From Candidatus Saccharimonadales bacterium (GTDB lineage: Bacteria; Patescibacteriota; Saccharimonadia; Saccharimonadales; JACQNP01): a stretch of DNA of 64,000 nucleotides. The notes beneath the pieces are model-generated. The model worked only from the letters and a program-made list of their open reading frames with translations. It did not search any database and was not told the origin of the DNA. A program made the position numbers and the translations under genes. The stretch lies in assembly GCA_038257245.1 (NCBI GenBank), contig JBBSJL010000001.1:23776-87775 (forward strand), in the 5' to 3' direction. Positions 7,131 to 58,368 of this stretch are shown in pieces (position 1 is the stretch's first letter; each line of letters opens with the position of its first letter).

Positions 7131-7514
7131 ATGGATAACCAAAAACAAAAAAAGATTTTACTAGTAGAAGACGATGACGCACTAGCTAGTGTGTATCAAA
7201 CACGTTTACAAGCAGAAAACTTTGATATTAGGCGGGTGCCGAATGGCGAAGATGCTTTAGCTGCAACCTTAGAATACAAACCAGACCTGATTTTGCTAGA
7301 TGTAATGATGCCTAAAGTTAGTGGATTCGATGTGCTGGATATTTTACGAAATACGCCCGAAACTGCAACAGTTAAGATCATTATGCTAACAGCACTCAGC
7401 CAAGACGCAGATAAAGAGCGTGCTAAGAGCTTGGGTGTAGATGACTATTTAGTGAAATCACAAGTTGTAATCGCCGACGTTGTCGACGTTATAAAACAAC
7501 GTCTTGGAATATAG
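7131..7514 (+). CDS. Stand-alone response regulator receiver (CheY-like), orphan
   Basis: LLVEDDD, phospho-acceptor context DLILLDVMMP and a conserved T/K; no output domain. Strong paralogy with the N-terminus of the 45403-46686 regulator. Confidence 0.8.
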   Translation: MDNQKQKKILLVEDDDALASVYQTRLQAENFDIRRVPNGEDALAATLEYKPDLILLDVMMPKVSGFDVLDILRNTPETATVKIIMLTALSQDADKERAKSLGVDDYLVKSQVVIADVVDVIKQRLGI

Positions 7515-10863: not shown

Positions 10864-11913
10864 ATGGTTGAAAAGATTAAAAAACGAGGCTGGAAATCAG
10901 TCCTGACAGTAGTAACTATGCTAGCTTTAGCTGGACTTGCGTATTTTTTGCATGAACAAATATACGATACATATAGGAATATACAAAATGTGTATTATTG
11001 GGTCTTGTTTCTCATAATTCCATGGGAAATTCTTAACTACCACTCGCAGACTAAACTGTTTCAAGGGATATTTCATGTTATTAGGGTCAAAATTCCGTAT
11101 AAATTTATGTATAAAACAGCGCTGGAATTAAATTTTGTAAATACAGTTTTCCCGAGCGGTGGTGTGTCGGGTATTTCTTATTTTAGCTTACGTTTAAAAC
11201 CCAAGGGGGTTTCTACGGCTCAGTCTACATTGGTAAGTTTCATGAAGCTAATAGTTATTTTTGTATCGTTTCAGATACTTATGTTTATTGGCTTATTATT
11301 GCTGGCAATAGATGGCAAGGCAAGCGGTGTGCTGATTTTGATTGCCGGGTCGTTGGTAACGTTCATGGCATTTGGTACGTTCATGTTTGCATTTATTATC
11401 GGTAGCAAAAAGCGGATTAATGATTTCCTAATGTTTTTTACTAGGATAGCTAACAGGTTAGTGCATATTTTTAGCAAGAAAAGGGAAACAATAAATACTA
11501 AACGAGCAGAAGCAGTATTTTCTGAAATACACGAACAATATATGCAGATAAAATCGAATTTACGTGAATTAAAGCAACCATTAATGTATGGCTTGCTTGC
11601 AAATCTAGCAGAAATCCTAGTGATCTACACAGTTTATGTCGCATTTGGTCAATGGGTTAACCCAGGAGCGATAATTATTGCATATGCTGTGGCAAATTTT
11701 GCGGGGCTAATATCGGTGTTACCTGGAGGTGTTGGAATTTATGAAGTGTTAATGACGGCTGTGTTGGCCGCTGGTGGCATACCTGCGAGCCTAAGTTTAC
11801 CGGTAACAGTAATGTACAGAATACTCAACATGTCTATTCAATTGCCCCCAGGTTATATTCTTTATCACAAGGCAATAAACCAGGATCCCGATGTCGCACT
11901 TAACAAAAAGTAA
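10864..11913 (+). CDS. Polytopic membrane protein (UPF0104 / lysyl-PG-synthase-TM-like flippase family, tentative)
   Basis: Eight or more predicted TM helices with a Gly-rich C-terminal TM (VLPGGVGIYEVLMTAVLAAGG). Confidence 0.45.
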   Translation: MVEKIKKRGWKSVLTVVTMLALAGLAYFLHEQIYDTYRNIQNVYYWVLFLIIPWEILNYHSQTKLFQGIFHVIRVKIPYKFMYKTALELNFVNTVFPSGGVSGISYFSLRLKPKGVSTAQSTLVSFMKLIVIFVSFQILMFIGLLLLAIDGKASGVLILIAGSLVTFMAFGTFMFAFIIGSKKRINDFLMFFTRIANRLVHIFSKKRETINTKRAEAVFSEIHEQYMQIKSNLRELKQPLMYGLLANLAEILVIYTVYVAFGQWVNPGAIIIAYAVANFAGLISVLPGGVGIYEVLMTAVLAAGGIPASLSLPVTVMYRILNMSIQLPPGYILYHKAINQDPDVALNKK

Positions 11914-13051
11914 CGATTATCAAAACAACCAAGTTTGGTCGGTCAGTGATTTCGTTGCTATATTTAACCAAACGATAGAATATGCGTATCCGTTTGTTAG
12001 TATTCAGGGTGAGCTGACTAACTTTAAAGTAAGTAAGAATAAATGGGTATATTTCGATCTAAAAGACGAAAATTCAAGTGTGAGGTTCTTCGGAACAATA
12101 TATGGCCTACCCGGCCCATTAGAAGACGGAATGTTGGTCAAGGTAAATGGTAGCCCAAGACTACATCCACAATTTGGGTTCAGTGTTTCGGTCCAGTCAA
12201 TTCATCCAGTAGGTGAGGGTGAAATAAAAAAGGCTGCCGATTTATTGCAGGCCAAATTACAAAAAGAAGGCTTATTCGAGGTATCGCGAAAACGCCCAAT
12301 ACCGTATCCGCCAACAAAAGTCGGGCTTGTAGCATCTTCAGAATCGGCGGCTTTTCATGATTTTATGAAAATATTAAATCACAGATGGACAGGAGTTGAT
12401 ATTCGATTAATCGATGTACAAGTACAAGGCGAGTCTGCACCTGGACAAATCGTAGGCGCAATCAGCGAACTAAACGCAACAGATGTGGAAGTGATTATTG
12501 TAACTCGTGGTGGGGGAAGCCCCGAAGACCTAGCTGCATTTAATCATGAAGTAGTTGTCCGGGCAGTGGCAACTAGCCGTATACCCACTGTGGTAGCTAT
12601 TGGTCACGAGGTTGACACATGTTTAGCTGAGTTGGCGGCCGACAAGCGTGCGAGTACTCCCAGCAACGCTGCAGAATTATTAGTTCCTGATAAAAAGTGG
12701 GAACTGGCAAATATTGAACAAATTTCTGATGAGCTAAACAGACTAATGAGCGTACATTTACTTAACCATAAAGATGCAGTACAGCAATCTGCAAAATTTT
12801 TAGATTCATCTCTTGAGCAGATGGTTGAAGCAGCCAAAAAAGAGGTAATGTCTGTAGGCAGCTTACTAAATAGCCTGAGCCCAAAAAATATACTAAATCG
12901 CGGGTATGCTTTAGTCAGATCTGAGGATGGAACATTGATCAGTAATATCAAGAAACTTAAGATAGGTGATAAGATAGCAATTGAACTTAGCGATGGTAAC
13001 GTCGCTGCAAAAATTATAGGAAGGACAAATAATGCCAAATTCAAAAAATAG
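11891..13051 (+). CDS. xseA: Exodeoxyribonuclease VII large subunit
   Basis: N-terminal OB fold, a central catalytic region and a C-terminal coiled coil. Followed by, and overlapping, xseB. Confidence 0.85.
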   Translation: MSHLTKSNDYQNNQVWSVSDFVAIFNQTIEYAYPFVSIQGELTNFKVSKNKWVYFDLKDENSSVRFFGTIYGLPGPLEDGMLVKVNGSPRLHPQFGFSVSVQSIHPVGEGEIKKAADLLQAKLQKEGLFEVSRKRPIPYPPTKVGLVASSESAAFHDFMKILNHRWTGVDIRLIDVQVQGESAPGQIVGAISELNATDVEVIIVTRGGGSPEDLAAFNHEVVVRAVATSRIPTVVAIGHEVDTCLAELAADKRASTPSNAAELLVPDKKWELANIEQISDELNRLMSVHLLNHKDAVQQSAKFLDSSLEQMVEAAKKEVMSVGSLLNSLSPKNILNRGYALVRSEDGTLISNIKKLKIGDKIAIELSDGNVAAKIIGRTNNAKFKK

Positions 13052-13226
13052 CTACAGAGATTTGCGGCAAGAACTGGATAACATTGTGGAGCAGCTACAA
13101 CAGGGCAACACAGAAGATATTGATAACGCTTTCAAACAATATGAACGAGGACAACTGTTAGTCAAGGAACTTTCACAATATCTTAAGGAAACTGAGAACA
13201 AGTTAAATAAGATTTCAAATAAATAG
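13032..13226 (+). CDS. xseB: Exodeoxyribonuclease VII small subunit
   Basis: A 64-aa helical protein (LRQELDNIVEQLQQG...) that overlaps the xseA 3' end. Confidence 0.8.
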   Translation: MPNSKNSYRDLRQELDNIVEQLQQGNTEDIDNAFKQYERGQLLVKELSQYLKETENKLNKISNK

Positions 13227-13234
13227 GATAAGTT

Positions 13235-13735
13235 TTGTTGCATACTTTATGGTTAACGACAGTCGTTTTATGTTTTATCGGGTTTGTTTGTTTTGTGTTT
13301 GTTATTGCTTATGGAGCTCCATTCTTGCCAACGCTAAAACCCCAGGTAGCCAAAGCACTAGACCTAATTGACCTAAAACCTGGGCAAACCTTATTAGAAC
13401 TAGGCAGTGGTGATGGGCGAATCATGGTAGAAGCCGCTAAGAGGGGTATTAATAGCATAGGTTATGAATTAAACCCATTACTTATCCTATATTCATTATG
13501 GCTGACGCGTAAATACAGAGACAAGATTACGATTAAGATGGCTAATTTTTGGAAGGTTCAGTTACCCAAGGCGGACGGGGTCTTTGTTTTCCTACTCACA
13601 CCTTATATGCAAAAGTTAGATGAAAAGATAAGTACTGAAAACCAGTCAAGACTAAAGCTTATAAGTTTTGCTTTTGCAATTCCAGGTAAAAAACCATCAA
13701 AAACCAGCGACGGATTATTTTTGTATAAGTACTAA
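13235..13735 (+). CDS. Membrane-anchored class I SAM-dependent methyltransferase
   Basis: N-terminal TM plus motif I LLELGSGDGRIMVEAA. Confidence 0.55.
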   Translation: MLHTLWLTTVVLCFIGFVCFVFVIAYGAPFLPTLKPQVAKALDLIDLKPGQTLLELGSGDGRIMVEAAKRGINSIGYELNPLLILYSLWLTRKYRDKITIKMANFWKVQLPKADGVFVFLLTPYMQKLDEKISTENQSRLKLISFAFAIPGKKPSKTSDGLFLYKY

Positions 13736-13775
13736 AGTATTGCACAACTGATCATTTGGCATTATCATAAGCACT

Positions 13776-14522
13776 ATGCCTCCAAATACGCCGCAAACGC
13801 CGACGTCTAATCCTGTGGGTGGGATGCCACAAAATCAACAACCGCTGCAAGGTCCGTTGATGTCACCCCCAAAACGGAAGAATAATACACTTCTAGTAGC
13901 CCTCGTTGTCGCTAGTGTATTCTTTATAATTAGTTTAATTTTTGCCATTTGGTCATTTATGGGAATGCAAAAATATAAAAACAACTCCGATGAAATTGTG
14001 GCTGTTGAAGTAGAAAAAACAAAACAAGAAACCGCAACCCAAAAAGATAATGAGTTTCTTGAAAAAGAGAAGACGCCATACAGGAACTACACCAGTTCGG
14101 ATGTTCTGGCTTCTATTAAGTTTGACTATCCTAAAACATGGTCGGCATTTATAGAGGAGGACAAGAATACTAATTCGGGTACCCCTCTTAACGGATATTT
14201 GCATCCTAATTTTGTGCCCGCTGTAGACTCAGGTACCGATTTTGCCTTACGTATAGAAGTAATTAGTCGACCATATAGTGATTCTTTGAAGGAACTTGAA
14301 AGCAAGGTAAAACAAGGGAAGATAAAAATTGCACCATATTCACTAGCGAAAGTCCCAACGGTTTTGGGTGTTAGAGCCAGTGGAGAGATAAATAAAGGAC
14401 AAAACGACACAATGGTCATGCTACCGATAAGAGACAAGACCTTAAAAGTTTATACAGAATCACAACAATTTGTACCTGATCTCGATAAAATTATTTTAGC
14501 TTCTCTGACATTTGTTCCGTAG
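13776..14522 (+). CDS. Hypothetical membrane-anchored protein (Pro/Gln-rich N-terminus, single TM, extracytoplasmic domain)
   Basis: PPNTPQTPTSNP...; TM LLVALVVASVFFIISLIFAIW; no known motif. Confidence 0.4.
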   Translation: MPPNTPQTPTSNPVGGMPQNQQPLQGPLMSPPKRKNNTLLVALVVASVFFIISLIFAIWSFMGMQKYKNNSDEIVAVEVEKTKQETATQKDNEFLEKEKTPYRNYTSSDVLASIKFDYPKTWSAFIEEDKNTNSGTPLNGYLHPNFVPAVDSGTDFALRIEVISRPYSDSLKELESKVKQGKIKIAPYSLAKVPTVLGVRASGEINKGQNDTMVMLPIRDKTLKVYTESQQFVPDLDKIILASLTFVP

Positions 14523-14572
14523 TCAGTGATATACTACTTATTATAGACAGATAGGAGGGTAGTTCTTAAGTT

Positions 14573-15265
14573 ATGGTAGCAAATCACAGTTTTGATGATG
14601 GGCGCCTTTTAAGAGCACTAGCGGAACAGCTGAAGTTGCCGTTAATACAGATAGCAAGACTTGCTGAGCTAGGAGTGGGTGACAAAGAATCCATAGAACA
14701 GATTCTCCATACATCAGATATGGCAATTCAATTAATAGACGGGTTGTTACTGAGTAATGATATTCATGCTCAGCAAACGCTAGGGCTCGAACCAGTTTCA
14801 GTTAGTTCCGTACTACTGGCGGCTACTGAAGATCTTCGTCATCATGCTAAAAACTACGGGTGTGAGGTCGAGCTTGATGTAGGTGGCCGATTTGCGCCTG
14901 TTATGGGTAACTTTAGGGCACTAAGAACTGCATTTACAACACTGGGTTATTCAATGATAGAAGCACAAACCCAAGAATTGAATAACAAGATAGTCTTGTC
15001 GGTCCATTTAGGCAATAAGGGTATTGTTGCAGGAGTTTTTGGTGGCAGTAATGAAATTACTAAAGACGCATTTAAACGTGCAAAGGCACTAATGGGTTCA
15101 GCAAAACAGCCGTTTGTGTCAAAGAGCTCATCGTCCGCAGCTGGAATATTTATAGCTGATTCGTTATTTAGTGTTATTGCATCTCAGCTTCAGGTTGCTA
15201 AACATAACAAACTTTCGGGGCTGACTACCACGCTAACTCCTAGCCAACAATTAAAACTGGTCTAA
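14573..15265 (+). CDS. Soluble histidine-kinase-like protein, apparently degenerate (phospho-His position reads Glu)
   Basis: H-box-like LAEQLKLPL (compare sHELRTPL), an N-box-like LRTAFTTLGYSMIEA and a G2-like SSAAGIFIADS. No TM. Confidence 0.4.
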   Translation: MVANHSFDDGRLLRALAEQLKLPLIQIARLAELGVGDKESIEQILHTSDMAIQLIDGLLLSNDIHAQQTLGLEPVSVSSVLLAATEDLRHHAKNYGCEVELDVGGRFAPVMGNFRALRTAFTTLGYSMIEAQTQELNNKIVLSVHLGNKGIVAGVFGGSNEITKDAFKRAKALMGSAKQPFVSKSSSSAAGIFIADSLFSVIASQLQVAKHNKLSGLTTTLTPSQQLKLV

Positions 15266-15269
15266 GCAG

Positions 15270-15650
15270 ATGAAAGTTCTACTGATTGAACCCGACAAAG
15301 TACTAAGGCAAATATATATTCAGGCATTTGAAGACCAAAACATTATAGTTAGTGCCTGTGCTAGTTCACAAGAAGCCGTGACTATACTCGAGGACTTTTT
15401 TGCAGATGTCATCGTTACTGAACTGCAGATTGCAGAACATAACGGGGTAGAGTTAATACACGAAATTCGTAGTTACCTCGAATGGCAAGACATACCAATA
15501 GTCATCAATTCAATAATCCCTCACAGCAACGTTGCTATTAATAATGCCGTGATGAAGCAACTTAACATCACAGATTATATGTATAAAGCAGTAACTAGTT
15601 TGCAAAAATTAATTTCTGTTACCGAACAGGCTTGTTACGAAAAAGCATGA
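15270..15650 (+). CDS. Receiver-like domain protein with Glu at the phospho-acceptor position (pseudo-receiver)
   Basis: Receiver fold (KVLLIEPD...; ADVIVTELQ in place of DLILLDxxMP). Confidence 0.5.
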   Translation: MKVLLIEPDKVLRQIYIQAFEDQNIIVSACASSQEAVTILEDFFADVIVTELQIAEHNGVELIHEIRSYLEWQDIPIVINSIIPHSNVAINNAVMKQLNITDYMYKAVTSLQKLISVTEQACYEKA

Positions 15651-16348
15651 AACATCGAACCACTAAAGTTATTATATTAAAACGTACAAATTTTAAAGAA
15701 GCAGATAGGATATTGACTTTACTCAGTGATGAATGGGGTAAGATAAAAGTTATCGCTAAAGGTGTCCGAAAACAAAAATCAAAATTAGCGGGGGGTCTAG
15801 AATTACTTAGCGTGAGTGAAGTTAGCTATATTATCGGCAAGTCAGAAATATATACATTGACATCAAGCAGGCTAGTCAAGCATTATCAAGAAGTAGTCAA
15901 TGATATCGATAGAACGATGATAGCTTATTCTCTTATTAACAAGGTATATAAGCTCTCAGAAGATCATACAGGTCAAGAATTCTTTACATTACTTGATCAG
16001 TCACTTGTAGCATTGAATGATCAGATTGATTTGCGGCTGGTTGAGTCATGGTTTAACATTCAACTCCTTAAGCTTACAGGCCACACACCTAACTTGGTTA
16101 CCGATATAGATAACAAACCTCTCAAACAAGGGATGGAATATGCTTTTGATACGGATAAAATGTTGTTTAATCAAAATACAGCCGGTAAATATTCTGATAA
16201 TCACATAAAACTAACGCGTTTGCTGCTGAAAGTTGAAACTTGTGACAGGCTAAAACCTTTAACAGGATTAACAGAATATTTTGATTTAATGTTAAGGTTA
16301 TCCAAGCAGCTTGTAGGGCTAAATTTACGGCTAGAGTCAGACAATTAG
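15632..16348 (+). CDS. recO: DNA repair protein RecO
   Basis: N-terminal OB fold (ILKRTNFKEADRILTLLSDEWGKIKVIAKGVRK) and a typical length. The zinc-finger Cys are not evident. Confidence 0.7.
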   Translation: MLRKSMKHRTTKVIILKRTNFKEADRILTLLSDEWGKIKVIAKGVRKQKSKLAGGLELLSVSEVSYIIGKSEIYTLTSSRLVKHYQEVVNDIDRTMIAYSLINKVYKLSEDHTGQEFFTLLDQSLVALNDQIDLRLVESWFNIQLLKLTGHTPNLVTDIDNKPLKQGMEYAFDTDKMLFNQNTAGKYSDNHIKLTRLLLKVETCDRLKPLTGLTEYFDLMLRLSKQLVGLNLRLESDN

Positions 16349-16409
16349 ATTGTGTAATTATTTCTCATAGGGCTATCGTACTAGTCCTTCTAGGTGGTAA
16401 CATATATAA

Positions 16410-17621
16410 ATGCAGGGGATCAATATCTATGTAGTTACTATATTAATAAGTAGCTTAATAATTCTTTCATATCTTTACATAGTTTTATCACGTAGAACAA
16501 AAATACCCACTGTTTTGATGCTGATATTAACAGGGGTGATTATCCGCCAGTTGTTTGTAACTTTTGGAATCAATGTCGATATACCTAATGAGGCAGTAGA
16601 GTTTATTGGTATTGTTGGTCTTATAATGATTGTTCTAGAAGCTGGACTTGATCTTAAATATTCGAAAATCAAAAAGGATCTTATCAAAAATGCTTTGTTG
16701 TCTTCGATTTTTGCACTAGTCTTGTCAGTAATTGGGGTGACATTATTACTGCATTGGCAGCTTGGACAGTCTTGGTTAAGTAGTGTAGTTTATGCAATAC
16801 CACTGTCAGTAATGAGTAGTGCGATCATTATATCAAGCAGTAAAGAACTAACTGAGCGAAAAAGGGAATTCCTAGCATATGAATCATCATTTTCTGACAT
16901 AATTGGGATTTTGATATTCGACTACTTCATAACAACTACAGTATTTTCAGTCCAATCAATGCTACCAGTTGCAATAGGGATTGTGTTTGCAATAGGGCTA
17001 TCGGTATTATTTTCAATTATTTTGGTTTGGGTGCTTAGTAAAAGCACGATAAACATTAAGTTCTATCTAATGTTCGCTACATTGTTTTTGATATATTCCA
17101 TGGGCAAGTTGTTGCACTTGCCAGCGTTGCTGATTATGCTGATTTTTGGTTTGATTCTAAATAACTGGTCAAAACTAAAGCATCCTTATCTAAAAAACCT
17201 AGTCCCGAACGATAAGATATCTGAAACCAGAAATTTACTAAAGCAAATTACAGCCGAGACAGCATTCCTTGTTCGTACACTGTTTTTTGTATTATTTGGC
17301 TACAGCATAGAGATAGGTGGGTTAATCAGCAGAGAGGTATTTGTAACTGGCTCGCTAGTTGTCGTTATTTTGTATGTTGTTAGATATCTATATCTCAAGA
17401 TATTCGTGACGCAACATGTCGTTCCAGAGATATTCTATGCCCCAAGAGGTTTGGTCACGATACTATTATTCTATAAAATTCCAGATTATTTAAGATTGGG
17501 TGAGTTTAATGACGGAATAATATTTTTTGTTATCTTGGTTACAAGTTTGATAATGATGCTGGGTGCTATGTTCCTGACACCAGAAGACGCGATGGATCCA
17601 AAGCTTAACGGCAAAATATAA
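16410..17621 (+). CDS. Polytopic membrane transporter (cation/proton antiporter-like, tentative)
   Basis: About 11 TM helices; family not resolved. Confidence 0.45.
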   Translation: MQGINIYVVTILISSLIILSYLYIVLSRRTKIPTVLMLILTGVIIRQLFVTFGINVDIPNEAVEFIGIVGLIMIVLEAGLDLKYSKIKKDLIKNALLSSIFALVLSVIGVTLLLHWQLGQSWLSSVVYAIPLSVMSSAIIISSSKELTERKREFLAYESSFSDIIGILIFDYFITTTVFSVQSMLPVAIGIVFAIGLSVLFSIILVWVLSKSTINIKFYLMFATLFLIYSMGKLLHLPALLIMLIFGLILNNWSKLKHPYLKNLVPNDKISETRNLLKQITAETAFLVRTLFFVLFGYSIEIGGLISREVFVTGSLVVVILYVVRYLYLKIFVTQHVVPEIFYAPRGLVTILLFYKIPDYLRLGEFNDGIIFFVILVTSLIMMLGAMFLTPEDAMDPKLNGKI

Positions 17622-17660
17622 TTCATCTATTGAAGTAGGCTGTCTGTTATAATTAACATA

Positions 17661-19031
17661 ATGAGTAAAGAAAAATCAGAAGTTTCTATGGAAGATATTG
17701 TTTCTCTTTGTAAAAGACGTGGGTTTGTATTCCAGGGCTCTGAAATATATGGCGGGTTGTCTGGTACTTGGGATTACGGACCATTAGGTGTTCAACTGAA
17801 GCGGAACTTAGTCGACATTTGGTGGAAGAAGTTTGTCGATGAGCGCGATGATATGTATGCCGTTGATGCAGCAATACTAATGAATCAAAGAACGTGGCAG
17901 GCTAGCGGACACGTAGATACCTTTAACGATCCTATGATCGAAGACGTCAAAACACACGAGCGATTCAGGCTTGATCATATCCTAGAAGACAATGATGTAG
18001 ATCCTGAAGGCATGAGCCTAGACCAAATGGCAGAAACTATAAATCAAAAAGGTATTAAGAGCCATAGCGGAAATGAGCTAGGGAACGCGGCCCAATTTAA
18101 TCTGATGTTCAAAACGCAGGTTGGGCCCGCGAGTGACGAATCTTCAATTAGTTATCTGCGGCCGGAAACGGCCCAGGGTATTTTTGTTAACTTCAAAAAT
18201 GTTGTGGATACGTTTTATCCAGATTTGCCATTTGGTATCGGCCAGGTAGGTAAGGCTTTTCGTAACGAAATTAGCCCACGGGATTTTATATTTCGATTAC
18301 GCGAAATGGAGCAGATGGAAGTAGAATATTTTGTTCAACCTGAGGATTGGGAATCTGCATTTGAGGATTGGCGTAATACAATAAATAACTTCTATGAATT
18401 CATCGGACTTCCAAAGTCCAAAATTCATGAACACGAAATTGGTGATGAAGACAGAGCCCATTATAGTAAGCGTACGATAGACTTTGAATTTGACTTTCCA
18501 TTTGGACGAAAAGAGTTAATGGGGTTAGCATATCGTACAGATTACGATTTATTGAAGCATCAAGAATATTCAGGAAAGAACCTAGAGTATAGACTTAAAG
18601 ATGGCAGTAAGTCGCTTGTACCGCATGTAATTGAACCTTCTATGGGTATGGAACGCCTGTTGCTGGCGGTATTAGTGAGCGCGTACACTATAGATGAAGT
18701 TAATGGGGATAAGAGAGTATTCCTTAAGCTATCAAAAGACATTGCTCCAGTAAGACTTGCAGTATCACCGTTATTAAAGAACAAGTCTGAACTAGTTGAT
18801 AAAGCCAGAGAAGTTTACGTAATGCTCAAACGGGAGTTTGGGAACGTCATGTGGGACGATAACGGCAATATTGGAAAACGTTATCGCCGTCAGGATGAAA
18901 TAGGCACACCTAGCTGTGTGATTATTGACTTTGATACGCTTGAAGACGACGCAGTGACAATACGTGATCGAGACACAACCGAACAGAAACGCGTTAAAAT
19001 TGCCGACTTAATTTCTACGATTGGGGTTTAA
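17661..19031 (+). CDS. glyQS: Glycine--tRNA ligase, alpha2 (class II dimeric) type
   Basis: FQGSEIYGGLSGTWDYGPLG, class II motifs and a C-terminal anticodon-binding domain. Confidence 0.9.
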   Translation: MSKEKSEVSMEDIVSLCKRRGFVFQGSEIYGGLSGTWDYGPLGVQLKRNLVDIWWKKFVDERDDMYAVDAAILMNQRTWQASGHVDTFNDPMIEDVKTHERFRLDHILEDNDVDPEGMSLDQMAETINQKGIKSHSGNELGNAAQFNLMFKTQVGPASDESSISYLRPETAQGIFVNFKNVVDTFYPDLPFGIGQVGKAFRNEISPRDFIFRLREMEQMEVEYFVQPEDWESAFEDWRNTINNFYEFIGLPKSKIHEHEIGDEDRAHYSKRTIDFEFDFPFGRKELMGLAYRTDYDLLKHQEYSGKNLEYRLKDGSKSLVPHVIEPSMGMERLLLAVLVSAYTIDEVNGDKRVFLKLSKDIAPVRLAVSPLLKNKSELVDKAREVYVMLKREFGNVMWDDNGNIGKRYRRQDEIGTPSCVIIDFDTLEDDAVTIRDRDTTEQKRVKIADLISTIGV

Positions 19032-19610
19032 GTGAGGTTGTCTAAACCAACCACTGAAAAAACAAACTACGCATACGTTGATAGTCAGAATTTGAATCTG
19101 GGTATTCAAAAAATGGGCTGGAAGATGGACTGGAAAAAGTTCCGTGAATATCTACGAAATGAATTTGACGTTGGGGTCGCATATCTTTTTATTGGCTATA
19201 TGGCAGAGAACGCGCAAATGTATGAGCAGCTGCACGAAGTAGGTTATTTAATTGTACTAAAGCCGACTGTGGGAATGCTTAATCCAGTTACCGATCAGGC
19301 CGATGATGGCGAAGATAAAGAAAAGAAGGTGCCAATAAAAGGTAATATAGATGCCGAACTAGTTTTATACGCCATGAAAGACATGCCAAAATACAAAAAA
19401 GCGATTATTGTTTCGGGAGATGGTGATTTTTATTGTCTTGCGGAATATTTGGCCGAAAAGAAGCGCTTATTACATATTATGGCTCCGAACTGGCAATACT
19501 CATCTCTTCTAAAACCATACGAAGACTATATTATTCGTCTAGACAAATTACGAAAAACTCTAGAACACAAAACATACAGGAATCGTAGTAAAGCCAAGGA
19601 ATCAAAGTAA
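19032..19610 (+). CDS. NYN/LabA-like nuclease domain protein
   Basis: YAYVDSQNL, GNIDAELV and IIVSGDGDF motifs. GTG start overlaps the glyQS stop. Confidence 0.6.
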   Translation: MRLSKPTTEKTNYAYVDSQNLNLGIQKMGWKMDWKKFREYLRNEFDVGVAYLFIGYMAENAQMYEQLHEVGYLIVLKPTVGMLNPVTDQADDGEDKEKKVPIKGNIDAELVLYAMKDMPKYKKAIIVSGDGDFYCLAEYLAEKKRLLHIMAPNWQYSSLLKPYEDYIIRLDKLRKTLEHKTYRNRSKAKESK

Positions 19611-45402: not shown

Positions 45403-46686
45403 CTACAAAGCGATATTATTGGGGCTATTTGGGTCGCTTGATTCGGGAGCCTCAGCGACTGGTGTTTCGGTTGCTGCTGGCTGTTCAGTCGGAGCAGTAG
45501 CAGTTGCGGCGTTGCCATTTATTGTTCCGTCTTCAGAAATATTGATATTTGCAGCTTCAGTTTCTGGGGCGCTTGGTTGTGGAAGATCTACAGCAGGGCC
45601 ACTGTTGGCTTGAGCATTTTTAAGTTCCTCTTGTTGTAATAAGGCATTCAGGTCCGGTCCGGTTGAGTTGAGGTCGTTTATAGGGGTTATTACTTTCTTT
45701 GACGCAGCTGGTGAGTTTTGGTTAGCTACAGGGTTTGGTGCAGGAGTTTCTGGTGTAGTGTCCGTTGTGGTAGGTGTGTGTTCAGGAGCAATGGCTTGGG
45801 GCTGAGCTCCAGTTTCTGTAGCTGGTTTATCGAGTAAATCGTTAACTGCATCAGCTAGTTTTGCAGCATTGTCGGCTGCAGCTGTCGTTGCATCTTGTGG
45901 TTCTTCAGCTACTGCAATCTCTTCTACAGGATCAGGGTTAGTTTCGGGCTCTGGTGGTGACGCTACAGGAGTAGGTGTTGGCTTGGGCTCTTCTGCTGGC
46001 TCAGTTGTCTTGGCGTTCTCTACAAAATTATTTATTTGGTCTTCAATTTTTTTCCCCTGATCTTGACTCGATTCACTCAATTGTTGTTCGTCAGGTTGAT
46101 CGTCGTTAGTTACTGGGTCTGTAGCTGGGGGCTGGGCTGGCTCAGATACAGGAGCAGGCATAGCGGTTACTGATGGGGTGTCTTGTTGATCGGTATCGGT
46201 ACTATCTGAGTTATCGGTTGCAGTCGTGTTAGACTCATCTACCACGGGCTGTGGCATAGGGTCTGGGCTGGCGGCAGGTACAGGATCTGGGCTACCAGTC
46301 TGGGCAGCCGGTGCTGCTTCACCAGAAAGAACTTCCCGGGCAACTGCTGCCACATCTTCAAGTGTAACTTGGGATTTGACCAAGTATCGGTCGGCACCAA
46401 GTTTATCAGCGCGCTCTTTATCTTCGGCCTGTGACAAAGCTGTCATCATAATTATTTTGGTATTCTTGGTTTCTGGGGTTGTGCGAAGAATATCTAGCAT
46501 ATCAAAACCGCTTATCTTAGGCATCATTACATCAGAGATAATAAGATCTGGTTTTTCCTTTACTGCTAATGCTAGCGCCTCTTCACCGTCTTTTGCCGAT
46601 ACAATTTCATAACCTTCTGCGATTAAACGTGCTTCGTAAATTTCTCGTAGATTGTTGTCGTCTTCGACTAACATTATTTTTGACAT
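45403..46686 (-). CDS. Response regulator: receiver domain plus a roughly 300-aa Pro/Thr/Ala/Glu/Asp-rich disordered tail, no DNA-binding output
   Basis: IMLVEDD, DLIISDVMMP, TALSQ and KS motifs, then a low-complexity tail. Immediately downstream of the kinase on the same strand. Confidence 0.75.
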   Translation of the reverse strand: MSKIMLVEDDNNLREIYEARLIAEGYEIVSAKDGEEALALAVKEKPDLIISDVMMPKISGFDMLDILRTTPETKNTKIIMMTALSQAEDKERADKLGADRYLVKSQVTLEDVAAVAREVLSGEAAPAAQTGSPDPVPAASPDPMPQPVVDESNTTATDNSDSTDTDQQDTPSVTAMPAPVSEPAQPPATDPVTNDDQPDEQQLSESSQDQGKKIEDQINNFVENAKTTEPAEEPKPTPTPVASPPEPETNPDPVEEIAVAEEPQDATTAAADNAAKLADAVNDLLDKPATETGAQPQAIAPEHTPTTTDTTPETPAPNPVANQNSPAASKKVITPINDLNSTGPDLNALLQQEELKNAQANSGPAVDLPQPSAPETEAANINISEDGTINGNAATATAPTEQPAATETPVAEAPESSDPNSPNNIAL

Positions 46687-46766: not shown

Positions 46767-48497
46767 TTATACATTTAGTTGCGGGTTTGCTGCTTCGGCT
46801 GTTTGCAGCTCCTTAGCCTGTAGTGAACTAATTCTAGGTAGATTGATATAGAATGTGCTTCCCTTGTCGACCTCACTATCCACCCAGATTCTTCCGCCAT
46901 AGATTTGTACGATTTTTTGGCAAATAAATAATCCAAGTCCAGTTCCTCCAACGGTTCGTGTGCTAGAATTATCGACTCGATAAAACTTTTGGAATAGGTG
47001 TGGGACGTCCTCTTTTGGAATGCCTGGGCCAGTGTCACGAATGTAGAACTGTATGACATCGGGGTTTCCAGTTAAGCCGATCGATATCTTGCCATTCTCG
47101 GTGTACTTCACGGCGTTATCGAACAAATTAGTAATAACTTCACGTAATCTATCGGGATCGGCGTAGGTATAGTAAAGCGGTGTAATTACTTTCTTGCCAG
47201 CACTCGCGTCGTTAGATTTGTTGCTTGTACCGATAGTAAACTCGACCAATAGGCCTTTCTTTTCGGCAGTAAACCTAAGCGAGTCAGCGACCTGCTCAAG
47301 GAATACTCCCATATCAATTGCTGCCGGGTGGCTAACTAATCGGCCGTCTTCTGCTTTGGCGCTAGTAAGCAAGTCCTGAAATAATTGCCCTAAGTGTTGT
47401 GTGCTGGAGTGGGCCTTTTCTAGATAACTCCTAGCCTTGACGTCGATATTGCTAACCTTATCATTCAGGGCAAGGGCTAAGTAACCTTCGATGGCTGCTA
47501 CTGGTGTACGCATTTCGTGGCTTGCTGTACTAATAAAATCAGCTCGGCGTTGTTCTTCGGCTTTCGCATTGCTAACATCGCGGATAACTGCAACCGTTCC
47601 AGCAAGTTCATTAGATTTATCAATAATGACTGGAGACACAACAAACGAAACGACGTGAGTTTTTTTGTCTCTGGCAGCAAGATTGTAGGTATTGCTCGTG
47701 GCTTGCCTATGAGCGATTACCATCGAGAAAGGATTAATATTACTAGGTATGTCTTCATCAAGTTCGTTTTTTATATTAACCACGTTATGGACGTTTATCC
47801 CAAGTGCTTCTTCTACGGGCCAGCCTGTTAGAACTGCGGCAGTTGAGTTCATGTTGTTAATATTGCCATCAGTATCGGTCACAATAACACCGTCGGCTAT
47901 AGACTGAATGAGGATCTCGGATTGTAGTTGTTTGTTTTTTAACGCCCCCGACAGTTTAGAAATTTGGGCGTTGGTTTTTAGGTCATAATAACGACGAAAA
48001 ACGAGGTAGCTAAGTATGCCTATGAGATAAGATCCGAAAAGACCTAGCATACTGAGAGTGCTTACTTCAAAAACACCTTCAGAGGAAGTTGACGACAAAA
48101 TAAAGTAAAGCGAAATCACAAAACACATACCGGTGATGGCGTATGTACCAAAAAGGCCACTAAACAAAGCTAGAGCAAGCCAAGAAATCATATAGATTGA
48201 GCTAAATTCGCCAGTCGTGTGTACGAGGCTGAGGATAGTCAAACATTGTAGGAGATAAAGTATTAGGGTTGCCTGCCAGGCATTTGCATGTGCAACCTCT
48301 CTCTTGTATATAAATACAATGTAAACTAGTTGCATTAGTGCAAAGCCGAGGGTCATGTAGGTTAGGGCTGATTCCTGGCTGTCTAAAATGTATTGGGGGG
48401 CAAACTGATTAACTGAGCTCACCAATGCAAGTGCAGCCGCTAAAACTAACGAAACGCGACTATACAAAAGATACCACCGGTCAGAAACAGATTGCAT
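46767..48497 (-). CDS. Sensor histidine kinase (multi-TM sensor, PAS, HisKA, HATPase_c)
   Basis: H-box STASHEMRTPVAAIEGY, N-box NLFDNAVKY, G1 RDTGPGI and G2 GGTGLGL. About 6 N-terminal TM helices. Confidence 0.85.
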   Translation of the reverse strand: MQSVSDRWYLLYSRVSLVLAAALALVSSVNQFAPQYILDSQESALTYMTLGFALMQLVYIVFIYKREVAHANAWQATLILYLLQCLTILSLVHTTGEFSSIYMISWLALALFSGLFGTYAITGMCFVISLYFILSSTSSEGVFEVSTLSMLGLFGSYLIGILSYLVFRRYYDLKTNAQISKLSGALKNKQLQSEILIQSIADGVIVTDTDGNINNMNSTAAVLTGWPVEEALGINVHNVVNIKNELDEDIPSNINPFSMVIAHRQATSNTYNLAARDKKTHVVSFVVSPVIIDKSNELAGTVAVIRDVSNAKAEEQRRADFISTASHEMRTPVAAIEGYLALALNDKVSNIDVKARSYLEKAHSSTQHLGQLFQDLLTSAKAEDGRLVSHPAAIDMGVFLEQVADSLRFTAEKKGLLVEFTIGTSNKSNDASAGKKVITPLYYTYADPDRLREVITNLFDNAVKYTENGKISIGLTGNPDVIQFYIRDTGPGIPKEDVPHLFQKFYRVDNSSTRTVGGTGLGLFICQKIVQIYGGRIWVDSEVDKGSTFYINLPRISSLQAKELQTAEAANPQLNV

Positions 48498-56430: not shown

Positions 56431-56823
56431 TTATGACTCTAGTTGTTTAACAAATTCCACTAGCTGTCGTGGAGTTATCTCGGCCTTTATAACGTAACCG
56501 TCGGCTTGTTTTTCGATTTCTTCCCTGCCGTTAACGCCTTGCTCTAGGTTAGTTGTGATTATTATTTTTCCTTTGATTTGTTCGGTATTGTTAGGGTTCC
56601 TAAGTTGTTTTAATATTTCAATACCAGTTATTGTCGGGATCATAATATCGAGGAGTATCACGTCATAAGTATTGGTCTGAGCTTGCTTAAGTCCATCTTC
56701 TCCGTCTACAGATACAGTTACACTGTAGCCGGCCTTTGTCAGAGCACGTACATATAGTTCGCTAATGAAATGCTCATCCTCGATGCAAAGTATTCGTTTT
56801 TGTGCGGTAGTTGTTTCTTCCAT
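56431..56823 (-). CDS. Stand-alone response regulator receiver (CheY-like)
   Basis: ILCIEDE, DVILLDIMIP and a KxxxxT pattern; no output domain. Start overlaps the upstream kinase stop. Confidence 0.8.
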   Translation of the reverse strand: MEETTTAQKRILCIEDEHFISELYVRALTKAGYSVTVSVDGEDGLKQAQTNTYDVILLDIMIPTITGIEILKQLRNPNNTEQIKGKIIITTNLEQGVNGREEIEKQADGYVIKAEITPRQLVEFVKQLES

Positions 56824-56826
56824 GAT

Positions 56827-58368
56827 TTATCTCCGGTAAAGTGAGTGATTTTTTATCCAACCGTGTGCGGTTCGGGTTACTTCCGTATTATTGCTGTTTT
56901 TAGCTTCATCGGCAAGTTGGGAGTAAGGTTTAAGAGTGAAAGCAAAAGTACTACCCTCGTTTTCTTTAGACTTGGCCCAAATTTGCCCGCCATGTGCGTC
57001 AACTATTGACTTGCATAAGAACAATCCCAGCCCAGTTCCGCCGACTTCTGTCTTGGTACGATGATTTCGGTAGAATTTATCGAATAGATACGGTAAAACG
57101 TTGTTCGGTATTCCTAGGCCGAAATCCTGCACAGACGTTTCAACCATACCGTTATCATCGATCTTTGTACTAACCAGTATCCTCTTGCCATTTGGACTGT
57201 ATTTGATGGCGTTTTCGATAAGGTTATTAATAACCTCGAACATACTAGTTCGATCCACGGCAACAGACGGTAGCCCCTCGGGAATACTATATTCAATTGC
57301 AATACCATGGGCTCTAGCTCGCATATCAGGATCTTCACAGGCATTTTTTAGGGTAGCTGCCCAGTCTTCTTCGTGAAGCTCCATATACATTTGGTTTGCT
57401 TCTATTCTGGATACATTGAGTATGTTGGTTACGAATGCATTAAGTTGACTTGCTGATGCTTCCATTTTGGCCATAAAGCTCTTTAATTCGTCGTCCAGCT
57501 TGTCATTTAGCTCATCTTGGAATATTTCGATATAGCCTCGTAGCATCGTCAGTGGGGTTCTTAGTTCGTGGACGGCTAGTGCTACAAAACTCATGGCCTC
57601 ATCATCTTGATTATATTGAACCGTTCTATCAAATAATGTGACTATAAATTCGGTACCGCTAGGGTTATCTCGGTTGTAATAGGCAGCAATGTCACACTGT
57701 TTAACAGCTTTTTCCTCAGGTAATCTTAGTCGGACTCTCTCCCAGTAGGCCGTATCTGTAACTTTATTATTCTGGCATTCCACTAGCCATTTTTCTAGCG
57801 TGTGCTCACTGGGGAATTCGAGGTTAACACTTTCATATAATGGTTTTCCAAACAGTTTAGAACTTTCCATTTTGCAGTACGCTAAAGCACTATCACTGGC
57901 ATTCGTCACAATCTGCGTGCTGTTAAATACAAATAATGGCAACGGCAAATGACTAACAATATTTGCAGATTGAACGACTGCTTTTCTGTGGTCGGTCAGA
58001 TCCGAATCTTTATTTGGTTGCTGACTAGCATACTGATAGACCTGCATGACAAGCGAAGTCACTAGCTCCCTTCCTAGCTTTACTTCATCAAGATTTGGTG
58101 CCTGGATATTGGAATTTTCGGGAGAAACATGGATAATGCCTTGCCACACGTATTGAAGAGGCTTGAGTGCATAGTTCGTGAATTTTACACCCAATAAACC
58201 GGCCATTAACATTGCTAGAACAAGCAGACCGGTAACGGACAAGATTAATGGCAAATCCAGAAAATCCAATAACACCCATGCTGCCAGCACCAATATAGCG
58301 TTCGATAGAATAAGAAAAACGACTAGGTTATTAGTGATTTGCTTCTTTAATCGTTGAAAATTATCCAC
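56827..58368 (-). CDS. Sensor histidine kinase (2 TM, HisKA, HATPase_c)
   Basis: H-box LAVHELRTPLTML, N-box NLIENAIKY, G1 QDFGLGI and G2 GGTGLGL. Confidence 0.85.
   Translation of the reverse strand: MDNFQRLKKQITNNLVVFLILSNAILVLAAWVLLDFLDLPLILSVTGLLVLAMLMAGLLGVKFTNYALKPLQYVWQGIIHVSPENSNIQAPNLDEVKLGRELVTSLVMQVYQYASQQPNKDSDLTDHRKAVVQSANIVSHLPLPLFVFNSTQIVTNASDSALAYCKMESSKLFGKPLYESVNLEFPSEHTLEKWLVECQNNKVTDTAYWERVRLRLPEEKAVKQCDIAAYYNRDNPSGTEFIVTLFDRTVQYNQDDEAMSFVALAVHELRTPLTMLRGYIEIFQDELNDKLDDELKSFMAKMEASASQLNAFVTNILNVSRIEANQMYMELHEEDWAATLKNACEDPDMRARAHGIAIEYSIPEGLPSVAVDRTSMFEVINNLIENAIKYSPNGKRILVSTKIDDNGMVETSVQDFGLGIPNNVLPYLFDKFYRNHRTKTEVGGTGLGLFLCKSIVDAHGGQIWAKSKENEGSTFAFTLKPYSQLADEAKNSNNTEVTRTAHGWIKNHSLYRR

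Follow-up and report, generated by a model that had tools for sequence, protein, structure and literature searches.

A conserved pair of a pseudo-histidine kinase and an aspartate-less receiver, with glutamate at both phospho-sites, in Saccharibacteria

What does a kinase and receiver gene pair do when the residue that would carry phosphate reads glutamate in both proteins? The question is raised by two adjacent genes in a 64,000-nucleotide stretch of the genome of Candidatus Saccharimonadales bacterium (assembly GCA_038257245.1, contig JBBSJL010000001.1, positions 23,776 to 87,775; hereafter the window, whose own numbering is used throughout). An earlier note, made from the letters alone, had described open reading frame (ORF) 1, at 14573..15265, as histidine-kinase-like and ORF2, at 15270..15650, as receiver-like; both lie where it placed them, on the forward strand and separated by a gap of four bases, and encode proteins of 230 and 126 residues, respectively. 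Here we show that ORF1 is a true homologue of the HisKA-type kinase core, that ORF2 is a single-domain receiver without its phospho-aspartate, and that the two genes are under strong purifying selection and are inherited and expressed as a unit across Saccharibacteria, with counterparts at the same position in Southlakia epibionticum that are probably essential for growth on the host. We consider it probable that this former two-component system has become a protein–protein module that works independently of phosphorylation.

The kinase ancestry of ORF1 is well hidden. Neither Pfam nor NCBIfam gives a kinase match even at E<=1, the gathering scores of HisKA and HATPase_c are not reached, and a search of the PDB with the single sequence returned nothing. 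Among 143 family representatives, HisKA is matched in 7 (best 6.3e-5) and HATPase_c in 1. A database search with ORF1 returned 117 clusters of 179-260 residues at 37-64% identity, the named ones all from Saccharibacteria, and a profile of 51 sequences from this search matched the cytoplasmic, dimerization and histidine phosphotransfer (DHp) region of CpxA, at E 1.8e-5 in a chain whose His position itself carries Glu and at 1.4e-4 in the wild type; the profile also matched DivL (0.028) and a hybrid kinase (1.1e-3). In all of these alignments the family's 'LAEQLKLPL' sits on 'ISHELRTPL', as the earlier note had proposed for this segment.

The predicted structure agrees with this assignment. An AlphaFold2 (AF2) model of ORF1 (predicted local distance difference test (pLDDT) 83.8, predicted template-modelling score 0.82) consists of a two-helix hairpin (residues 6-32 and 38-66) followed by an alpha/beta domain. 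Its top Foldseek match in the PDB is HK853 (E 1.4e-10), with a template-modelling (TM) score of 0.70 across the DHp and the catalytic and ATP-binding (CA) domains; there are 307 PDB matches at E<=1e-3, and each of the 50 listed is either a kinase core or a protein that contains a kinase, with DivL (TM 0.71-0.73), RetS, CusS, CpxA, WalK and the kinase-related domain of phytochrome A among the fold matches. The DHp-like hairpin (residues 6-66; 14588..14770, forward strand) is delimited by the two modelled helices and by family conservation, and the degenerate CA-like domain (residues 72-230; 14786..15262, forward strand) by alignment with EnvZ and HK853 and by the fold match. On this model, ORF1 has the DHp hairpin and Bergerat-fold CA domain that define class I (HisKA-type) kinases. 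It is a soluble protein with nothing else: the hairpin begins at residue 6 and the protein has neither a sensor, PAS or HAMP domain nor a membrane-spanning segment, which bears out the claim that no membrane-spanning sensor is present.

The catalytic residues of this core have been replaced. In canonical HisKA kinases, the positions considered here are those responsible for Mg-ATP binding and for kinase and phosphatase catalysis. We tabulated them in 197 family sequences aligned with EnvZ and HK853, and in a set of 264 obtained by adding 50%-identity representatives to the 197. The phospho-acceptor position, aligned on the His of CpxA, EnvZ and HK853, is Glu18 in ORF1 (codon GAA, 14624..14626, forward strand); it is Glu in 191 of the 197 sequences and never His, and across the 264 members it is E in 231, D in 10, Q in 10 and H in 3, with single instances of other residues. 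The acid that follows the His is Gln19 (Q in 160 and E in 30 of the 197), and the Thr/Asn four residues beyond the His is Leu22 (L in 151, then M, V and I). An N-box-like segment still aligns, as had been claimed, without its Asn: HK853 N380 corresponds to Ser127 (A/S in the family), and the Lys three residues past N380 to Glu130 (mostly E). The G1 Asp is Gly157 (G/S/A in the family, D in ~8%). The G2-like segment is partly kept, 'GxGLG' being 'AAGIF' in ORF1 and 'GAGxF' in the family, which retains 'GAGxFxAD'. A canonical residue at a slightly shifted position was considered and ruled out, as the phmmer, profile and MAFFT-with-references alignments share one register, with Glu at both phospho-sites of the pair. 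Judged by these alignments, ORF1 has lost the phospho-His, the His+1 and His+4 catalytic residues, the N-box Asn and the G1 Asp, and with them, we infer, ATP binding. ORF1 falls under the definition of a pseudo-histidine kinase, that is, a histidine kinase fold without at least one kinase function.

What the family has kept most strictly is the first helix of the hairpin: no part of the protein is more conserved than 'rLLxaLAEQLKLPLlQIARxAEL'. In real kinases, the surface of helix 1 is where response regulators dock.

ORF2 is the more easily recognized partner. It matches Pfam Response_reg (E 1e-11; 45.4 bits against a cut-off of 30.2), and many NCBIfam regulator models match across its length. 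An AF2 model built from only three sequences (pLDDT 82.2) has the five strands and five helices of a (beta-alpha)5 fold, and in Foldseek it is closest to RR468 (TM 0.82-0.87), with DivK, MicA and PhoB, including the PhoB D10A/D53E structure 2jb9, also among the matches. The register is set by phmmer, which places 'VTELQI' of ORF2 on 'ICDLRM' of RssB and 'VLDIMM' of RR468, and by MAFFT with CheY, PhoB and Spo0F, which gives the same alignment. The phospho-Asp position (CheY D57) is Glu51 (codon GAA, 15420..15422, forward strand), and the claim of a receiver fold with Glu at this site holds. Beyond what had been noticed before, the second metal-binding acid (CheY D13, PhoB D10) is Pro8, within a Glu7-Pro8-Asp9 stretch that replaces the Mg2+-binding acidic pair (CheY D12, D13; 15288..15296, forward strand, by alignment with CheY, PhoB and Spo0F) and has Glu7 at the other acid, and both Ser81 (CheY T87) and Lys106 (CheY K109; codon 15585..15587, forward strand) are retained. 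ORF2 thus has the profile score, the fold and the Thr/Ser and Lys of a receiver and lacks the phospho-Asp and the intact acidic pair. A pseudo-receiver is a domain that PF00072 recognizes but that misses one or more of the five active-site residues, and it counts as aspartate-less if the D is among those missing (PMC12632262); ORF2, in which both D (Glu51) and the second acid (Pro8) are lost, is both.

These substitutions are shared by the orthologues. Across 77 receivers, Glu51 is found in 75, Glu7 and Pro8 in 76 each, Asp9 in 72, His57 in 76, Ser/Thr81 in 75, Tyr105 in 75, Lys106 in 77 and Pro107 in 74. Helix 3 and the loop that follows it (residues 57-72; 15438-15485), with the motif 'H-N/S-G-x-EFLYExRSYxEW', are conserved far above what is normal for a receiver, and helix 4, the usual output face, is variable and carries an insertion. 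This distribution suggests that the functional surface of the receiver may be an unconventional one.

The pair is lineage-wide. When one genome for each GTDB species was scanned, 280 proved to encode a relative, and the best 80 loci were fetched; nearly all bear Saccharibacteria, Saccharimonadales or Patescibacteria labels, and a few have another label or none. The order kinase-like gene, receiver, recO is present in 76 of the 76 loci that have enough downstream DNA. The fuller order xseA, xseB, methyltransferase, membrane protein, kinase-like gene, receiver, recO, glyS is complete in 36 loci, most of the others being truncated versions of it. From kinase stop to receiver start there are -4 to +9 nucleotides in 70 of 76 loci, and in 57 of 73 related loci the end of the receiver gene and the beginning of recO share 4 nucleotides. 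An exhaustive search of representative sequences gave 281 clusters when the limit was E<=1e-30; at the looser E<=1e-3 there were 1220, the best 150 of which are listed. Family genes are intact and conserved in length, with many invariant columns at 35-60% overall identity. Both genes are held by strong purifying selection, are always neighbours, are coupled in translation and are passed on and expressed together.

Not every lineage carries glutamate at both sites, and the exceptions are informative. The three members with His18 have the same gene order, and their receivers carry 'IEPD' and Glu at the phospho-site. Receivers with Asp at the site occur in loci L068 and L074 and in a widespread freshwater lineage (L086/L087), and there the kinase-like protein has Glu18. 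The divergent loci L088-L090 also have Asp receivers, and their kinase-like proteins read 'ALSDDLALPLL', with Asp-Asp at the site and no Lys at position 21; a further reading, 'VAENIRLPL', was seen among the Asp-receiver relatives L088-L090 and L086/L087. In L086, the otherwise invariant receiver His57 is replaced. When these three His-bearing sequences were used to seed a metagenome scan, four loci came back, with His in none of them and Asp-Asp at positions 18-19; the receiver gene is readable in three of these four, and has Asp in all three. No locus combines His18 with Asp51. The second metal-binding acid is Pro or Ser in all receivers, those with Asp51 included. The lineages L086-L090 may represent intermediate steps in the loss of phosphotransfer. 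A third homologue search, with a 143-sequence profile, found close relatives only; canonical ancestors, as well as the oral clade, may lie among the family members at E 1e-30 to 1e-3. At receiver position 51 no residue other than Glu or Asp was seen, which suggests that a carboxylate is needed there for something and that the site is not a neutral relic.

The same genome provides an internal control. In the window lie two canonical kinases, a PAS histidine kinase (46767-48497, reverse strand) and a second kinase (56827-58368, reverse strand), both with His, N, G1 and G2 boxes and with Pfam E values of 1e-27 to 1e-32. There are also three canonical receivers: a 426-residue response regulator that adjoins the PAS kinase (45403-46686, reverse strand), a single-domain receiver beside the other kinase (56431-56823, reverse strand) and an orphan single-domain receiver (7131-7514, forward strand). 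All three receivers have the full acidic pair, Asp, Thr and Lys. Because these kinases and receivers were detected normally, the degeneracy is specific to the pair. The approximately 300 C-terminal residues of the 426-residue regulator are without a Pfam match.

Whether the pair matters to the cell can be judged from the transposon-insertion data for S. epibionticum ML1, the one species for which genome-wide data of this kind exist, in Table S1 of Wang et al. 2023 (Cell 186:4803, PMC10633639). There SEML1_0242-0249 comprise, in this order, xseA and xseB, genes for a class I methyltransferase and a hypothetical protein, a 708-bp histidine kinase gene followed by a 366-bp response regulator gene, and finally the genes for RecO and glycine-tRNA ligase (PMC10633639), and since this is the gene order of the window, SEML1_0246 and SEML1_0247 are the positional counterparts of ORF1 and ORF2. 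SEML1_0246 had 32 insertions in the input DNA but 8, 3 and 1 at T0, T1 and T2 (calls at P0/P1/P2 GD/GD/ES), and SEML1_0247 had 10, then 2, 1 and 0 (NE/GD/ES) (PMC10633639). RecO (SEML1_0248) went from 38 to 25, 36 and 29 (NE/NE/GD) (PMC10633639); because recO tolerates insertions, the depletion of the two upstream genes does not come from polarity on it. The likeness to our pair extends from the neighbourhood to protein size (235 and 121 residues), the layout of DHp plus CA only and the weakness of the Pfam kinase matches: for SEML1_0246, Table S2 gives a DHp at 1-75 and an ATPase-like domain at 76-230, with Pfam independent E values of 6.9e-6 and 3.4e-4 (PMC10633639). For the canonical PAS kinase SEML1_0318 the corresponding values are 7.4e-26 and 2.5e-11. 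This kinase is non-essential, and SEML1_0318, its regulator SEML1_0317 and the orphan regulator SEML1_0238 are as a group non-essential or nearly so (PMC10633639). In that genome SEML1_0246 is annotated as a 'HAMP domain-containing histidine kinase' and SEML1_0247 as a 'response regulator', and the main text of the paper is silent on kinases and regulators (PMC10633639). Judged by size and neighbours, the window's 56827-58368/56431-56823 and 7131-7514 appear to correspond to SEML1_0318/0317 and SEML1_0238, respectively.

Several described proteins share features with one or other member of the pair. A close precedent is DivL-DivK of Caulobacter crescentus, in which a HisKA-type core without phospho-His binds a single-domain receiver on its DHp surface with no phosphorylation. 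DivL differs from ORF1 in having Tyr at the site, PAS domains, a membrane anchor and a less degenerate CA domain; no counterpart of its N-terminal PAS/sensor domains or anchor is found in ORF1, and DivK, unlike ORF2, is a genuine phosphorylatable receiver. RetS of Pseudomonas aeruginosa, plant phytochromes and subfamily-2 ethylene receptors likewise use a kinase fold for regulation and not for catalysis; they are, however, large multi-domain sensors, none of which is paired with a dedicated pseudo-receiver gene. On the receiver side, plant pseudo-response regulators, fungal Rim15p, FrzS, HP1043 and ChxR have the PF00072 fold without phospho-Asp, Glu being the commonest replacement (PMC12632262; PMC4395418), but the characterized bacterial examples are nearly all orphans with an output domain, whereas ORF2 is a single domain coupled to a pseudo-kinase gene. 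PhoB D10A/D53E (2jb9), the nearest parallel made in the laboratory, is changed at the same two active-site positions, with the acid removed and Asp turned into Glu; that protein is an engineered, constitutively active DNA-binding regulator, and in ORF2 the change is natural, to Pro instead of Ala, and fixed in the lineage. The canonical pair HK853-RR468 of Thermotoga maritima, with His260, Asp53, an intact ATP site and a transmembrane sensor, differs from ORF1 and ORF2 in each of these respects. HisKA domains without the His make up about 0.9%, and receivers without an active-site residue several percent. The earlier note's remark that tandem pseudo-kinase and pseudo-receiver genes are unusual is borne out by this rarity and by the orphan status of nearly all characterized atypical regulators, and our literature search found no description of a dedicated pseudo-kinase/pseudo-receiver pair or of this Saccharibacteria family. 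Since the defining catalytic features fail, the pair stands outside the functional histidine kinase and response regulator families and, by analogy, may work as a docking module of the DivL-DivK type.

We propose the following mechanism. The pair would descend from a HisKA-type two-component system that lost phosphotransfer signalling. The receiver would be locked in an active-like state, the Glu51 carboxylate contacting Lys106 and Ser/Thr81 much as in PhoB D10A/D53E. We know of no evidence for Glu at a kinase His site as a mimic that is comparable to that for receivers. At the receiver D, Glu is the commonest aspartate-less replacement and a partial phosphomimic in many regulators (PMC12632262). 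So locked, the receiver would bind a dimeric pseudo-kinase at its invariant helix 1, docking there in the fashion of RR468 on HK853, which is a natural template because each of these two proteins was found, independently, as the best structural match of its counterpart in our pair. The resulting complex would act by protein contacts, with the essential upstream membrane protein and the genome's own canonical kinases and receivers as candidate targets; that the canonical systems are dispensable in S. epibionticum argues that they are not the essential route.

Several points weigh against this reading. Binding between the kinase-like protein and the receiver is a proposal made by analogy, and average-product-corrected mutual information over the 77 paired sequences, a depth too shallow for informative inter-protein covariation, gave no enrichment at the interface, the top 100 pairs holding 3 between the DHp and receiver helix 1 against 3.2 expected. 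Two Glu residues facing each other in a His-Asp type of docking would repel unless a Lys or a cation bridges them. About 10% of the sampled lineages keep the receiver Asp, where phosphorylation by another donor is possible. The G2-like glycines and the invariant Gly154, Gln179 and Gln226 persist in ORF1, so that its pocket may bind something. Finally, what ties the essentiality data to our pair is position, size and domain layout, not the site residues.

Four other explanations share part of this evidence. In the first, which we rate as unlikely, the pseudo-kinase acts mainly on the canonical systems of the cell, through a DHp heterodimer as in RetS-GacS or as a DivL-like reader of phosphorylated single-domain receivers, and the Glu receiver serves as a competitor or tether. 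DivL and RetS are indeed among the best structural matches, DivL appears in the profile search as well, the window offers two canonical kinases and two canonical single-domain receivers as possible partners, and pseudo-histidine kinases inside two-component networks are an established concept. ORF1, however, is without the PAS domains by which DivL controls CckA, and the S. epibionticum canonical genes SEML1_0318/0317 and SEML1_0238 are dispensable or nearly so, yet SEML1_0246/0247 are depleted; the needed function is therefore not exerted solely through canonical partners.

A second explanation makes the CA-like domain a sensor of a small ligand, such as a nucleotide second messenger or a metabolite, that releases or captures the pseudo-receiver and so provides a switch without phosphorylation. 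Near-invariant residues with no canonical role (Gly154, Gln179, 'AGxFxAD' at 190-196, Gly216 and Gln226) and a flexible lid of low AF2 confidence (residues 170-190) fit this idea, but the same conservation may mean folding or a protein interface, and the domain showed no homology to any known variant that binds a ligand; we regard it as distinctly improbable.

Very hard to credit is a third, in which phosphotransfer persists through other residues (His211, Asp9 and the minority Asp51) with a different mode of nucleotide binding. His211 is present in 181 of 264 members, Asp9 in most receivers, Ser/Thr81 and Lys106 are kept, Asp51 occurs in some lineages and the G2-like glycines persist. Against this, His211 is not on the DHp helix but in the final strands of the CA-like domain, and is elsewhere often Tyr, Phe or Arg; the N-box Asn, the G1 Asp, the His+1 acid and the His+4 Thr/Asn are gone; the second metal-binding acid is Pro or Ser even beside Asp51; and His18 never occurs with Asp51.

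That the genes are decaying two-component relics without present function is almost untenable: every tested catalytic residue is lost, but in 280 GTDB species genomes and in the 281 representative clusters at E<=1e-30 the reading frames are unbroken and their length is conserved, with invariant columns, strict synteny and gene overlaps, and with insertion depletion in S. epibionticum.

The phosphorylation-independent module that we prefer may have a third member. Directly 5' of the pseudo-kinase gene, here and in ~70 of the 80 loci, lies a gene for a membrane-anchored protein of 248 residues (13776..14522, forward strand), with a Pro/Gln-rich N terminus, one hydrophobic helix and a C-terminal domain of ~180 residues; a single-sequence PDB search with it gave nothing significant. 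Its counterpart in S. epibionticum, the hypothetical SEML1_0245, has a PsbP/Mog1-like fold (Table S2), is enriched in Patescibacteria and is essential at all three time points (PMC10633639). We advance it as a candidate member, and, more speculatively, as a possible though not a probable extension of the proposal, we picture an essential three-part device in which a membrane-anchored extracytoplasmic protein, a pseudo-kinase dimer reduced to its core and a pseudo-receiver fixed in the 'on' state would link the cell envelope, or contact with the host, to an essential process inside the cell without phosphorylation.

The genes around the pair are tightly packed on one strand, from xseA (11891) to the gene for glycyl-tRNA synthetase (end 19031). 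A promoter and terminator scan of 11500-19300 gave counts not above those of shuffled sequences and so marks no operon boundary. The 3' neighbour is recO (15647..16348, forward strand; Pfam RecO_N and RecO_C, TIGR00613 E 9e-25). It does overlap the receiver gene, as had been claimed. The start in the ORF list is TTG 15632; because the RecO_N match begins at residue 6 of that frame, and because ATG 15647 forms ATGA with the receiver's TGA, the true start is probably ATG 15647 and the overlap 4 nucleotides. Through this ATGA, translation of recO is probably coupled to that of the receiver gene. Between recO and glyS lies a 403-residue polytopic membrane ORF (16410-17621, forward strand), found in that position in only 2 of the 80 loci, which looks like a lineage-specific insertion into the fixed order and may encode a cation/proton antiporter. 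The genes for xseB and the membrane protein are separated by one for a small class I S-adenosylmethionine-dependent methyltransferase (13235-13735, forward strand). In NCBIfam the methyltransferase comes closest to an archaeal protein-lysine methyltransferase, a weak match whose E of 1.4e-8 is far under the cut-off. Most related loci have this gene and some do not, and the S. epibionticum counterpart is non-essential.

Pseudo-kinases and pseudo-receivers are each known already, and are common, although in bacteria their mode of action is largely unclear (PMC12632262). Their lineage-wide and probably essential pairing, in contrast, did not turn up in the literature that we searched. Both partners have lost phosphorylation and stay coupled in ultra-small, host-dependent bacteria, whose reduced genomes retain little that is dispensable, and the pair is for that reason a clean natural case of a two-component scaffold that would work free of phosphate. 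The labels 'histidine kinase' and 'response regulator' overstate the capability of such genes. Because S. epibionticum is transformable, point mutants at the Glu sites are feasible. If the three-part device is real, it would be the first obligatory, fully phospho-dead kinase and receiver pair, and it would be found in a genetically tractable bacterium of the candidate phyla radiation.

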